From Patescibacteria group bacterium (GTDB taxonomy: Bacteria > Patescibacteriota > Patescibacteriia > UBA9934): a stretch of DNA of 64,000 bases. Shown in pieces: positions 45,518 to 61,457 of the stretch (the stretch's first letter is position 1; the number at the start of each line of letters is the position of its first letter). Where the stretch lies: positions 12,766 to 76,765 of the forward strand of contig JBAQTB010000003.1 in assembly GCA_049296775.1 (NCBI GenBank). The letters are read 5' to 3'. The notes beneath the pieces were generated by a model. It saw only the letters and a program-made list of their open reading frames with translations, was not told the origin of the DNA and did not search any database. Position numbers and translations under genes: made by a program.

Positions 45518-45970
45518 TTACGCCGTCGGGCCTGTACGAGTGCGTGAGTCGCGCTGACGTGTCGTTGCGCGGTCGATAGCTATGCTGTTGACCGTGCGCG
45601 GCGTTTTGCCGTCTAGTCCAAGTTCATGCGGAAGCGTAGCATCGCCGAATTGAATCAGCGGACAGATCTCACGCTGAAAATTGAGATAGGTGGGCGGATT
45701 CTTGGTGGCGCCAGCGATTCGCAAGATTCGGTGGCCCGTGCCGATGTAGCAGAGGCCGAGGTGGATTTTCGACCCACTGTCGTGGATGGCGATGCCGAAC
45801 GGTGGCACTTTTCCATCAAACAAGGCGCCGGCAACTTGCGCGGCCGGTACGTAGACTTGTGGTGCCACCAGGTAGTGTAGGAGTCCAGGGATTTGATCTC
45901 CCCAGGCGTCGCGCATGCTTTTGTGTAAGTTCGTGGCGGTTTCGATAACGGCTACCTCGATTGGTCCCAT
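45518..45970 (-). CDS. Hypothetical protein
   Basis: About 150 aa. The ORF-track start 45988 is TTG; the first ATG (MGPIEV) is at 45970. The C-terminal coding runs through a GC-rich hairpin region. Confidence 0.35.
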   Translation of the reverse strand: MGPIEVAVIETATNLHKSMRDAWGDQIPGLLHYLVAPQVYVPAAQVAGALFDGKVPPFGIAIHDSGSKIHLGLCYIGTGHRILRIAGATKNPPTYLNFQREICPLIQFGDATLPHELGLDGKTPRTVNSIAIDRATTRQRDSRTRTGPTA

Positions 45971-46068
45971 TTTACCCCCAAGATTCAAATGCCGCAGTAT
46001 GCAGATTTGAACGCTCGATATTACTAACTTTTCAGGCAGAAGTCAAGGCAAGAGAGATTGATTAAAGT

Positions 46069-46126
46069 AAGTCCTTTCCTTCAGCTTCGTTCAGGACAGG
46101 CGGCATCCGCCTCAGGATGGTAATGA
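46069..46126. repeat. Second copy of the taagtcctt...ggcatccgcctcaggatggt(a)atg motif
   Basis: Shares a 9+24-nt core with 16488..16521. Lies at the distal end of the tRNA-Pro-linked repeat array. Confidence 0.5.
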
Positions 46127-46217
46127 CGATTGAGATTAAAGAGAAATAGAAATTTAAAGTTATGAAATGTTGGAGTTTGATATTGGCGATCATGAACGAT
46201 TTGAAAACCTGTGTGTC

Positions 46218-46337
46218 GCCGGTCAGAGACCATGAGCGAGCGAAGCCTGATGGTAAGCCCTTCGATGAACTCAGGGCATTCGACTCACTTCGTCTTCCCA
46301 AGCGGTCGAAGACCATGAGCGAACGAAGTGAGTCGAA
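46218..46337 (-). repeat. tRNA-Pro-linked tandem hairpin repeat (one full roughly 85-nt unit plus one half unit)
   Basis: Unit cccttcgatgaactcagggcattcgactcacttcg-[30-nt loop]-cgaagtgagtcgaatgg; the terminal tgg is the encoded CCA of tRNA-Pro. The half unit ggtcagagaccatgagcgagcgaag lies upstream. Confidence 0.7.
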
Positions 46338-46412
46338 TGGTCGGGCTAGTGGGATTTGAACCCACGGCCTCTTGCACCCCATGCAAGCGCGCTACCACTG
46401 CGCCATAGCCCG
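46338..46412 (-). tRNA. tRNA-Pro (anticodon GGG), CCA encoded
   Basis: Cloverleaf: acceptor CGGGCUA/UAGCCCG, D arm GCGC/GCGC, anticodon stem CUUGC/GCAAG, loop AUGGGGU (G37), T arm GUGGG-UUCAAAU-CCCAC, discriminator A, CCA. Confidence 0.85.
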
Positions 46413-46444
46413 ATGTTTGAGGTTGTCGTTGGGGTTATTGTAGG

Positions 46445-46993
46445 CTACTTAAACTGTGCGTAGCTGAAAAGGACACCAAAGGCGCGGCACCAGATCATGA
46501 CGTTGGTGTATTTGGTTAGATCAGTCCCGGCTGGGATGGCGTAGTTGACGCTGCCCTCCGTGGCCCGAATGGCACCAAGGTCTACAATGTCATCCGCATT
46601 TAGGTCGGACGATAGGTAGATGCGTAGATCGGGGCCGTTGATAGTTTTTAGATTTTCAAAACGTAGAAAAGTTTCGTCACCAGCTGTAACTAGTAAAGCT
46701 TCGCCTTCCACGCCGTGTGCCATGGCGATCATATTTGCTCGGCTGGTGATGGTTGGTTGACTTGCAGGCATGGTTTCATCTTTCACCATCACCTCGTCTT
46801 TCATGTCTGCAGTCTGCTTGTCAAAATCGGCTTGTGTCTCGGCATCCATTGTCTGCCGGTTATCTTGGATTGAAGCGTCTGGAGTGCCTGGCAAGGCCTC
46901 ATCTAGTGTTACATCTCGCCAAAAAGGTGATATCAACCAGTATGCTAAGGCTAATATAACGATCAATCCGATCCCAATAAATAGTTTTTTCAT
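46445..46993 (-). CDS. DM13-domain secreted/membrane-anchored protein
   Basis: N-terminal signal/TM, C-terminal DM13-like domain (GEALLVTAGDETFLRFENL...GPDLRIYLS...NVMIWCRAFGVLFSYAQF). Confidence 0.5.
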   Translation of the reverse strand: MKKLFIGIGLIVILALAYWLISPFWRDVTLDEALPGTPDASIQDNRQTMDAETQADFDKQTADMKDEVMVKDETMPASQPTITSRANMIAMAHGVEGEALLVTAGDETFLRFENLKTINGPDLRIYLSSDLNADDIVDLGAIRATEGSVNYAIPAGTDLTKYTNVMIWCRAFGVLFSYAQFK

Positions 46994-47048
46994 AAGTACT
47001 TAAAGATTTACGGATTTTCTATGACGATTTTGAAGTCCGAAGCATTAA

Positions 47049-47510
47049 TCATAGCTCGTAGTAGGTCTTGATGCACTCATCCAAATCATGAATCAAATCC
47101 AATTTGAGTGCTTCGATTGGTGATACCCACACATACGCCTGATGTTCTTTAAGATTAACAATTATTTCAGGCTGGGTCGAGAGGCGAGCAATGAACATGT
47201 GATAACCAATGTCATGTCCCTCGTTTCGAACGAATACAGTACCAATATGTTCAAGATCTTCTTCAGAAATGTCTAGGCCAGTTTCTTCTTTAATCTCTCG
47301 GCTCATTGCCCGATGAATAGTTTCTCCTGGGTCGACCTTGCCAGCGGGTAGGCCTAATTTATTGCCATTGGTTTTGTGCGGTTGGCGGTGGAGCAGCACA
47401 AACTTTCCGTCATGCTGAACATAACAACCAACCACGTCTATTTCCTTATTAAAATCTTTCGGCGCTTCTTGGAAAATCATAGAGTTCGAATCCCTTTTGA
47501 ATTCACTCAT
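47049..47510 (-). CDS. NUDIX hydrolase
   Basis: Nudix box GLPAGKVDPGETIHRAMSREIKEETGL. Confidence 0.8.
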   Translation of the reverse strand: MSEFKRDSNSMIFQEAPKDFNKEIDVVGCYVQHDGKFVLLHRQPHKTNGNKLGLPAGKVDPGETIHRAMSREIKEETGLDISEEDLEHIGTVFVRNEGHDIGYHMFIARLSTQPEIIVNLKEHQAYVWVSPIEALKLDLIHDLDECIKTYYEL

Positions 47511-47612
47511 GTTATCACCTTTTAGTTTTAGAAAGTAGCTTAAAATACATTGACGACATCCCCAACGTAGCCCGATTTGTCCGACATAGCCCGTAGGGCG
47601 ACGGCGGAGGGG

Positions 47613-47784
47613 TGAAATGTCAGCCCTTCGATAAACTCAGGACATTCGACTCACTTCGTCTTCCCAGCGGTCTGAGACCATGAGCGAACGAGGTTTGATG
47701 GTGCGTCCTTCGATTGACTCAGGACATTCGACTCGCTTTGTCCCCTCACTGGTCGAAGACCATGAGCGAGCGAAGCGAGTCGAA
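47613..47784 (-). repeat. tRNA-Ser-linked tandem hairpin repeat (two roughly 80-85-nt units)
   Basis: Units are homologous to the tRNA-Pro-linked unit. The proximal unit ends gagtcgaatgg, with tgg equal to the CCA of tRNA-Ser. Stem cgactcgctttg/cgaagcgagtcg shows compensatory changes relative to cgactcacttcg/cgaagtgagtcg. Confidence 0.7.
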
Positions 47785-47872
47785 TGGCGGAAGAGGAGAG
47801 ATTCGAACTCTCGATACCTTGCGGTATACACGCTTTCCAAGCGTGCGCACTAGGCCACTATGCGACTCTTCC
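47785..47872 (-). tRNA. tRNA-Ser (anticodon GGA), class II with long variable arm, CCA encoded
   Basis: Acceptor GGAAGAG/CUCUUCC, anticodon stem CACGC/GCGUG, loop UUGGAAA, variable arm UAUACCGCAAGGUAU, T arm GAGAG-UUCGAAU-CUCUC, discriminator G, CCA. Confidence 0.85.
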
Positions 47873-47951
47873 TTAAGGATATTAGGATAGAATTCCCACC
47901 TTAAGATATAGCAATTACTTACTTTAGGCAAGCGTGGTAATATGCGTAAAT

Positions 47952-48344
47952 ATGAAGATCAGTTATCCAATTGCTGAGGTTCCGAATCCGGGCGAAGCGC
48001 TGCGTAAAGCCGGATATGCTTACTTTAGGGACCCTAAGTCTGGGGAGGATAGTTTTGTAATCAGGCTGACCACAGAGTTCTATCCACGCTTTCATTTATA
48101 TGTGGACCAAGATGACAAACAAGTGAGTTTTAATTTGCACCTGGATCAGAAAAAGCCTTCTTACGGCGATCATAACAAGCATGCCGGCGAATATGATGGC
48201 GAGGTCGTAAGTAAAGAAATGCGTAGAGTAGACAGTTGGGTGAGGTCTTATGCACGTATGGTTAAGGCCGATAATATTACGCCGGCTTCTGATCGACATA
48301 AAACCAAGGACGCAAGCAAGCCTTGGTGGAGACGCTTTTTCTAA
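47952..48344 (+). CDS. Hypothetical protein
   Basis: The ORF-track start 47934 is GTG; the ATG is at 47952. No family recognised. Confidence 0.4.
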   Translation: MKISYPIAEVPNPGEALRKAGYAYFRDPKSGEDSFVIRLTTEFYPRFHLYVDQDDKQVSFNLHLDQKKPSYGDHNKHAGEYDGEVVSKEMRRVDSWVRSYARMVKADNITPASDRHKTKDASKPWWRRFF

Positions 48345-61216: not shown

Positions 61217-61291
61217 TCCGGGGTAGCTCAGTGGCAGAGCGCGGGACTGTTAATCCCTAGGTCGTGGGTTCGAGCCCCACCCCCGGAGCCA
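61217..61291 (+). tRNA. tRNA-Asn (anticodon GTT), CCA encoded
   Basis: Acceptor UCCGGGG/CCCCGGA, D arm GCUC-AGUGGCA-GAGC, anticodon loop CUGUUAA (U33, GUU, A37), T arm GUGGG-UUCGAGC-CCCAC, discriminator G, CCA. Confidence 0.85.
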
Positions 61292-61293
61292 AC

Positions 61294-61326
61294 AAAAAAT
61301 CAGCCTTAGGGCTGGTTTTTTGTTTT
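61294..61326 (+). terminator. Intrinsic terminator after tRNA-Asn
   Basis: aaaaaatcagcc-ttag-ggctggtttttt: hairpin plus U-tract. Confidence 0.65.
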
Positions 61327-61457
61327 ACCGACGGGGGAGCAGACAAAAAGTTTTGTCTGCGTTGGGGCGAGAACGCCGGAGGCATATTCCGTCAGCAGAC
61401 GGAATGCCGAGGCGGTGGCCAGCCCGAACCGAGTGACGACGAGGTGAGAGGCGAGGC

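Follow-up and report, generated by a model that had tools for sequence, protein, structure and literature searches.

What are the palindromic repeat units that follow a tRNA-Pro gene of a Patescibacteria group bacterium, and what ties them to the end of the tRNA? In the window, meaning the whole 64,000-nucleotide stretch of DNA that was analysed, the original prediction had placed structured repeat units immediately 3' of tRNA-Pro, beginning at its encoded CCA, and this was confirmed by ARAGORN, by Rfam, by the sequence itself and by the z-score of the fold (Table 1). On the minus strand the tRNA continues without a gap as CCA-TTCGACTCACTTCG-TTCGCTCATGGTCTTCGACC-GCTTGGGAAGA-CGAAGTGAGTCGAATG-CCCTGAGTTCATCGAAGGG, after which come a linker and a partial unit; the Rfam tRNA model stops immediately 5' of the CCA. 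The long stem that had been described is real and forms a perfect inverted repeat, the CA of the CCA supplying the first two bases of its helix (P1), but it comprises 17 bp with 29 nt between the arms and not 16 bp around a 30-nt loop. The inner hairpin was likewise present, although it reads GGTC-TTC-GACC, with 4 bp and a 3-nt loop, in place of ggtc-ttcg-acc, and the unit extends to 46340, not 46337. The conserved joining stretch of this first unit is TCGCTCA. The second, partial unit expected after the linker was found; it ends after the hairpin P3, and has neither the 3' arm of P1 nor the terminal hairpin P4.

The same family was said to recur at tRNA-Ser with compensatory changes in the stem, and it does; in the Ser stem, both sides have changed, from CACTTCG/CGAAGTG to CGCTTCG/CGAAGCG. 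The tRNA-Pro locus holds 1.3 units and the tRNA-Ser locus 2, the first unit starting at the encoded CCA in both, and both first units fold far below shuffled sequences. Both represent a short variant in which the hairpin P2, found in other members of the family, is absent and P1 is longer instead. In the second Ser unit the 5' arm is degenerate (CCATCAAACCTCG), with P3, a Pro-type 3' arm (CGAAGTGAGTCGAATG) and P4 intact, and its fold z-score indicates that P1 cannot form. The linker t-ttgatggt recurs as noticed earlier, though between the two units of the Ser locus and not between the two tRNA loci. Because the junction is common to the two loci and the second Ser unit carries a Pro-type 3' arm, the sequences suggest that the loci exchanged or inherited a dimer.

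Table 1. Features of the element-bearing tRNA loci in the window
Feature	Position	Strand	Evidence
tRNA-Pro (GGG), CCA encoded at 46338-46340	46338..46412	-	ARAGORN; Rfam tRNA 69.5 bits; sequence
Pro unit 1, complete element	46258..46340	-	inverted repeat; covariance model R1 72 bits, E 1e-14; -46.1 kcal/mol, z -6.4
Pro unit 1, P1	5' arm 46323-46339; 3' arm 46277-46293	-	inverted-repeat search
Pro unit 1, P3 GGTCTTCGACC	46304-46314	-	
Pro unit 1, P4 hairpin CCCTGAG..TCGAAGGG	46258-46276	-	
Pro partial unit 2: linker CCATCAGG, then CTTCGCTCGCTCATGGTCTCTGACC	~46220..46250	-	repeat search; covariance-model partial match 46220-46239
Possible degenerate remnant: GC hairpin GGCGGATGCCGCC (CCATCCTGAGGCGG...), then P4-like hairpin GTCCTGAACGAAGCTGAAGGA	46077..46133	-	covariance model R1 15.1 bits, E 0.15
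tRNA-Ser (GGA), CCA encoded at 47785-47787	47785..47872	-	ARAGORN, Rfam
Ser unit 1, complete element	47706..47787	-	covariance model 76.8 bits, E 1e-15; -42.4 kcal/mol, z -5.8
Ser unit 1, P1 arms	inside 47763-47786 and 47725-47748	-	inverted-repeat search
Ser unit 2	47624..47701	-	covariance model 37.8 bits, E 1e-6; fold z -0.5

The core TCGCTCATGGTCTNNGACC occurs four times in the 64-kb window, against 0.05 occurrences expected, and solely at the Pro and Ser loci; the covariance model yielded no further convincing copy there. At the CCA of tRNA-Asn, the third tRNA of the window, an ordinary terminator takes the place of the element. A candidate remnant about 90 nt 3' of the Pro units, for which the evidence is weak, is entered in Table 1, and 3' of the Ser units there is a 12-nt stretch (47582-47593; cgggctatgtcg on the minus strand) similar to the first nucleotides of tRNA-Pro (46401-46412; cgggctatggcg), which may be a tRNA fragment or chance. 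Neighbouring genes are ordinary and encode Lgt, a DsbA-like protein, a DM13 protein and a NUDIX protein. A search for orthologous loci through the 182-aa DM13 neighbour found no relatives in metagenome contigs, the protein appearing only on one 1.3-kb Logan contig. The open reading frames called across the units (46062-46382, 47637-47840, 47746-47931 and others) share peptides because the underlying DNA is repeated, as had been proposed, and are spurious read-through of the repeat. Two further exclusions also stood: the units abut through linkers of 3-11 nt with at most two units per locus, which does not describe a CRISPR array, and they have conserved cores (TTCGAC..GCTCA and TGAG..TCGAA) and no GTAG head, which does not describe a standard REP element.

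To find the wider family, we scanned a single genome for each GTDB species with a pattern that combines the unit's inner and distal segments (CATGGTCNNNGACC and, after a gap, CGAATGNCCTGAG) and is blind to the tRNA junction. It recovered 77 loci, against roughly 0.5 expected by chance on our own estimate. They are spread over many classes of CPR/Patescibacteria, Armatimonadota, ANGP1, WS2 and MAGs that carry the label Gammaproteobacteria; L047, at the least, seems to be a fortuitous hit within coding sequence. Most matches begin 21-36 nt past the 3' end of a same-strand tRNA of any isoacceptor. A profile of the unit delineated 110 non-overlapping copies in the 77 loci, 93 of them with a complete 5' end, and 67 of these 93 lie at offset 0 from the CCA of a tRNA or tmRNA called by ARAGORN, across about 20 isoacceptor types; Rfam placed tmRNA genes at two of the loci. 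The element is always on the tRNA strand, and a subset of the tRNAs in each genome bears it. The original prediction asked whether every copy abuts a tRNA 3' end: these 67 complete copies do so exactly, but some of the copies lie behind 3' fragments of tRNAs, and certain Armatimonadota copies behind non-tRNA sequence.

Within the element loci (L006-L082), the CCA is encoded by 143 of 144 tRNA genes, irrespective of a following element, and is thus the tRNA's own. In lineages that lack an encoded CCA, the first triplet of the element (CCC, CAC, CTC or CCG, ahead of TTCGAC) directly adjoins the discriminator. The 5' boundary of the element is tRNA position 74. Many tRNA genes in metagenome loci selected by protein are without an encoded CCA. 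A sister variant, CCACTCGACTCGTCGTC...CTCGCTCGTGGTTTC, was seen after an initiator-like tRNA-Met (L009:4603; L038, minus strand, tRNA-Met 4678; L031, tRNA-Met 2671), and in L038 and L031 a GIY-YIG gene follows it too. MAGs titled 'uncultured Gammaproteobacteria' (L009, L015, L016, L024, L026, L028, L029, L031, L034, L035, L057, L058, L075 and L076) match Patescibacteria MAGs in the element and in the layout of the tRNA operon, and their labels may be unreliable.

No known family accounted for the element in Rfam 15, which returned only tRNA/tmRNA plus noise at the gathering threshold and at E up to 10, and blastn of one unit against phage and plasmid collections gave no match. No description of it was found in literature searched for GIY-YIG with tRNA or CPR, trailer ribozymes, UPF0213/YhbQ, and the sequence and peptide strings. 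A 17-base core pattern gave five matches in IMG/VR, which were rejected as chance: none of the five loci has a tRNA, and L001, the one whose sequence was inspected, is coding-like (R-S-W-S codons).

An alignment of 57 tRNA-adjacent units (A1) revealed a constant order, in which CCA-TTCGAC-TC is followed by a variable hairpin (P2), TCGCTCA, P3 (TGGTC-nnn-GACCA), a variable linker, GAGTCGAATG and finally P4 (nCCTGAG...TCGAAGGn). The 5' end of the element pairs with the distal arm GAGTCGAATG to form P1, giving a four-helix fold: the CA of the CCA is buried in P1, P2 varies, P3 is a short helix, and P4 forms a terminal hairpin; within P4 a U-A pair is followed by tandem G.A/A.G and a G-C pair, a theme repeated in longer versions of the hairpin. 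Paired positions amounted to 91.8% of alignment cells, against 26-42% when the partners were slid. Double-sided changes were seen at 8 of 8 pairs in P2, and the closing pair of P4 is variously U.G (n=24), C-G (n=18) and U-A (n=12). P3 and P4 together contained 37 G.U against 6 A.C, an excess that speaks for an RNA with the sense of the tRNA strand; no G.U bias was seen in P1 or P2.

The 5' triplet covaries both with the triplet after GCTCA (GGG, GTG, GAG, CG) and with the distal arm (..CGAAGG, ..CGAAGT, ..AGAAGA), and the CCAC-TCGAC type has a matching GCTCGTGG and GTCGAGTG. The three-way covariation was visible in the A3 alignment (L204-L283) and in A1, where C to T in column 9 accompanies G to A in columns 36 and 86, and it indicates two mutually exclusive helices for the 5' end, both of them maintained: a short early hairpin, CCA-TTCGAC..GCTCA-TGG, and the long P1. 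P3 pairs the TGG after GCTCA with a second copy of the triplet. Such dual partners point to a folding pathway or a switch, and to more design than a plain palindrome would require. Hairpin modules are nested in several copies (L064, L026, L052, L042, L041, L060 and L028); P2 of L064 is GTCCTTCGATAAACTCAGGAC, and a second TCCTGAGTTTATCGRAGGR lies in the P4 loop of both L041 and L060. Unrelated trailers and ordinary terminators after tRNAs (L006-L082; window 61291-61330) also have stems that begin at the CA or at the whole CCA, an example being CCACGTAAAAACACCGG...CCGGTGTTTTTACGTG. Pairing of trailer with CCA looks like a general habit of these genomes and, since ordinary terminators share it, may be a property of the host's trailers and not of the element.

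A compact fold at a tRNA 3' end recalls the theta ribozymes, minimal HDV-like ribozymes that lie directly 3' of tRNA genes and are tied to trailer removal (PMC10879173). That precedent, the location, the several helices and the highly conserved joining stretches (TCGCTCA, GACCA and TGAG/CGAA) would all suit a new ribozyme that releases the tRNA 3' end by cleaving itself. We nevertheless consider this improbable, because the presumed site of cleavage is inside a long perfect helix, no ribozyme family of Rfam 15 matched 45900-48000 at E up to 10, the second Ser unit is kept despite having no P1, and the short hairpin module described below occurs in both orientations and also alone, far from tRNAs. 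Ribozyme models, HDV-like or other, do not match the element, in which no double pseudoknot was seen either; theta ribozymes reside in gut phages, whereas the element resides mainly in CPR and other bacterial MAGs and is linked to a GIY-YIG gene. Hammerhead and HDV-like ribozymes were also considered by eye and rejected, since the CUGA..GAA strings do not fit their cores, and Rfam agrees.

About 25 copies sit 8-25 nt 5' of the next co-oriented tRNA, three of them within one operon of L019, a spacing that leaves no room for a separate promoter. As these copies lie between co-oriented tRNAs, the element is probably co-transcribed with the tRNA. The strong GC-rich stem immediately after the tRNA might itself be taken for an intrinsic terminator of the tRNA gene, in line with the termination structure that was among the first candidate roles. 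No U-tract follows the element stems, however, the terminator scan found nothing at the window units, downstream tRNAs begin 8-25 nt further on, and in L020 an ordinary terminator comes after the element; we give this explanation almost no credence. A role in tRNA 3' processing, another of the roles first listed, is possible because the 5' boundary of the element coincides with the tRNA 3' processing position; for a decoy role there is nothing in favour.

Comparison of related genomes at orthologous tRNAs, as the original prediction had proposed, revealed that the element is polymorphic. L013 and L020 have near-identical tRNA-Gly and tRNA-Leu genes, with the element behind a different tRNA in each: in L013 an element of 112 nt stands between the Gly CCA and a short spacer, where L020 has none, and in L020 the element stands between the Leu CCA and a terminator common to both genomes. 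This filled/empty comparison displayed no clear target-site duplication, the insertion being clean after the CCA. In the Leu-Ala-Val operons of related genomes, the element follows Ala, Val or both.

Larger rearrangements were also apparent. L030 and L050, which come from different assemblies, share a block that runs from about 25 nt before the CCA, a piece resembling a tRNA 3' end, to the stop codon of a nuclease gene, and their flanks are unrelated. Both L012 and L045 contain a complete tRNA and, 130-240 nt beyond it, a duplicated tRNA 3' fragment with the element; in L012:60-800 (minus strand) the complete tRNA-Gln and its hairpin are succeeded by a cassette that comprises about 130 nt, then 20 nt duplicated from the 3' end of tRNA-Gln, two units and the GIY-YIG gene, and that is flanked by a 14-nt direct repeat, AGTCGTCAGATTAT. 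These arrangements bear the stamp of a mobile cassette that carries tRNA 3' sequence along. Vertical inheritance with occasional loss could explain part of the pattern. Copies are 0.77 identical within a genome and 0.69 identical between genomes, with the nearest relative often in another genome; as a test of transposition this was set aside, because the excess is weak and does not separate transposition from inheritance.

The nuclease gene of these blocks is a recurrent partner. Reading frames of the form FYVYIL..LYIG.T..R..H were noticed in the flanks, and phmmer identified 26 GIY-YIG ORFs in the 77 loci, 18 of which start 2-45 nt after P4 on the same strand. About one fifth of copies have the GIY-YIG gene directly downstream; most have no nuclease gene. 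The proteins are 79-97 aa long, consist of the catalytic domain only (Pfam PF01541) without a DNA-binding domain, and match the solved UPF0213 proteins BH0048 and EF2693 (PDB 1zg2 and 1ywl). Going by the UPF0213 name, we take them to be members of the YhbQ/YazA group. YhbQ and YazA have been placed in the Slx1 family in a review (PMC7017083). P4 could mask the ribosome-binding site, for the GAAGG/AAGGA in its 3' strand falls 3-13 nt before the start codon in roughly half of the cases.

The association was also seen from the side of the protein. Searching metagenome contigs with the aligned GIY-YIG proteins gave 600 candidates, of which 533 were relatives, and the best 80 of the 533 were kept. 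In about 30 of these best 80 the covariance model placed the element on the strand of the gene, ending just before it, and 19 of the 80 have a tRNA or tmRNA no more than 400 nt upstream; by eye, many of the remaining loci show variant P4-type hairpins ahead of the start. Neither a GIY-YIG gene nor a credible remnant of one was detected in the 64-kb window by phmmer, tblastn or HMM, so that for the window copies the nuclease link comes from their relatives. One frame right after the second Ser unit (47546-47611, minus strand; ...LRAMSDKSGYVGDVVNVF*) was considered as a remnant and rejected, as it rested on a single weak tblastn hit (E ~0.3 window-wide) and was not among the top HMM segments. 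The link to UPF0213 GIY-YIG genes, the distribution across phyla and the copies that do not abut an intact tRNA all go beyond what had been noticed at first. Among the roles listed at the outset, a tRNA-targeting mobile element is the best supported, by the clean insertions after CCA, the GIY-YIG cassette and the 67 of 93 copies at tRNA or tmRNA ends.

Several of these results could also be read as the signature of a tRNA trailer RNA useful to the host, a processing, insulating or stabilising module that would pair with the 3' end until it is cut and that the GIY-YIG gene merely uses as a landing pad or expression site. Consistent sense orientation, a start exactly at the processing position, rich covariation with two alternative 5'-end helices and a G.U bias that favours the sense strand all agree with it, as do the unrelated trailers and terminators of the same genomes that also pair the CA of CCA and the lack of a nuclease gene at most copies. 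We regard it as rather unlikely: only some tRNAs per genome carry the element and near-identical operons fare well without it, copies also stand behind tRNA fragments and, in Armatimonadota, behind non-tRNA sequence, their tandem, truncated and nested arrangements resemble the dynamics of repeats, and element and nuclease gene travel as one block.

P4 has a counterpart that is far more widespread. The 18-nt hairpin core CCTGAGCNTGTCGAAGGG had at least 120 matches in IMG/VR contigs (L084-L203); among the matches listed it usually lies inside variable, covarying complementary outer stems (e.g. ccgttcgc...gcgaacgg) and is often paired with a module in the opposite orientation, GGTTCGACAGGCTCACC. 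None of the IMG/VR matches listed has a tRNA or a GIY-YIG gene beside it, and the core matched no Rfam family. Peptides such as PFDKLRANG and SLSNHE are, we presume, common in annotations, which would fit this census of short hairpins. The composite element is, as far as these comparisons indicate, built from a much more widespread hairpin module. Such abundance away from tRNAs and GIY-YIG genes, together with modules that are nested and occur in both orientations, might suggest a generic REP- or MITE-like DNA palindrome, for which tRNA ends are simply tolerated insertion sites and which neither acts as an RNA nor is connected with the nuclease. This too strikes us as having little chance of being right, given the exact offset of 0 in 67 of 93 copies with strict orientation to the tRNA, the association with GIY-YIG genes in both search directions, and the lack of a GTAG-type REP head and of target duplication. 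A MITE has terminal inverted repeats; the P1 arms are inverted repeats, with P4, a part of the conserved unit, lying outside them.

Alongside the observed sequence family, junction, structure, insertion polymorphism and gene association, the interpretation that we favour, with slightly better than even confidence, is that the window units are gene-less (solo) copies of a mobile leader, anchored at tRNA and tmRNA ends, of a UPF0213/YhbQ-type GIY-YIG gene. Their solo status is assigned because the window contains no GIY-YIG gene and no credible remnant. We reasoned that, since the element lies at tRNA and tmRNA 3' ends and elsewhere leads into a GIY-YIG gene, it may belong to a selfish cassette that lives on tRNA transcription units. 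Such a cassette would have no promoter of its own and would be transcribed from that of the tRNA; the normal tRNA 3' endonuclease would separate its RNA from the tRNA, and the freed 5' end, locked in a helix, would stabilise that RNA and keep it clear of the tRNA. P4 would then mask the Shine-Dalgarno-like GAAGG/AAGGA a few bases before the start codon of the nuclease, and the nuclease would drive spread to other tRNA ends by break and repair. The window copies would be leaders that lost the ORF or never had it.

Homing cassettes offer one parallel. Presence/absence polymorphism at a conserved target and tRNA 3' fragments carried along were both found, as expected of such a cassette; an intact GIY-YIG ORF is absent from the window units and present after about one fifth of the copies elsewhere. 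Proven homing endonucleases have a DNA-binding domain, unlike the 79-97 aa nuclease of the cassette, and we know of no transposition chemistry for small GIY-YIG proteins of this type. Phage T4 SegB is a free-standing GIY-YIG homing endonuclease encoded in a tRNA gene cluster, and the two systems share a GIY-YIG gene among tRNA genes, presence/absence polymorphism and co-transfer of flanking tRNA sequence (PMC2330249). They differ in that the proteins found here are UPF0213/YhbQ/Slx1-like catalytic domains with no DNA-binding domain (PMC7017083), and in that the element is found in cellular genomes with a conserved structured leader as part of the unit.

Other systems share single features with the element. 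Integrative elements have integrase att sites in the 3' halves of tRNA genes, and the duplicate tRNA 3' fragments beside displaced cassettes (L012, L045 and L030) are comparable; the present element, however, has no integrase, measures about 0.1-0.4 kb and has its junction at position 74/77 and not inside the tRNA. In tRNA-punctuated transcripts, such as those of mitochondria (tRNA punctuation) and MALAT1-mascRNA, processing of the tRNA liberates the neighbouring RNA; by analogy, the RNA downstream would here gain its 5' end from tRNA 3' processing, but in a bacterial context and with a selfish gene. REPIN-RAYT systems consist of short hairpin repeats, imperfect palindromes of 20-40 nt with a GTAG-type head, and a small Y1/HUH (IS200/IS605-like) transposase gene flanked by the hairpins. 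They have in common with the element many short hairpins, a conserved core, covarying stems and one small nuclease gene that those hairpins flank; the partner of the element is instead a GIY-YIG nuclease, there is no GTAG head, and the composite is fixed in strand and anchored at tRNA position 74.

This last resemblance permits a bolder reading, which we put forward tentatively and think possible but doubtful: the composite element may be the autonomous form of a hairpin-repeat system run by the UPF0213 GIY-YIG nuclease, a counterpart of REP-RAYT, with the CCTGAG..TCGAAGG hairpins as its solo repeats and the leader as a two-state RNA that, by pairing its 5' end (tRNA positions 74-76) with one or the other of two partners, couples tRNA 3' processing to expression of the nuclease. 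If true, it would be a new lifestyle for a selfish gene, one based on tRNA transcription units and found in many bacterial phyla.

If the favoured interpretation, a mobile leader of a GIY-YIG gene anchored at tRNA ends, is correct, these units represent a large family of structured elements that sit at the 3' ends of tRNA and tmRNA genes with single-nucleotide precision and that appear neither in Rfam 15 nor in the literature searched. It would also explain why metagenome annotations contain a class of spurious small ORFs whose peptides include PFDSLRSLMV and MSERSESNG, and would for the first time place the widespread, uncharacterised GIY-YIG proteins of the UPF0213/YhbQ type in a genomic context and give them a testable role. 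Finally, it would bear on tRNA 3' maturation in CPR bacteria, where nearly all tRNA genes of the sampled loci encode CCA and the trailers pair with it.
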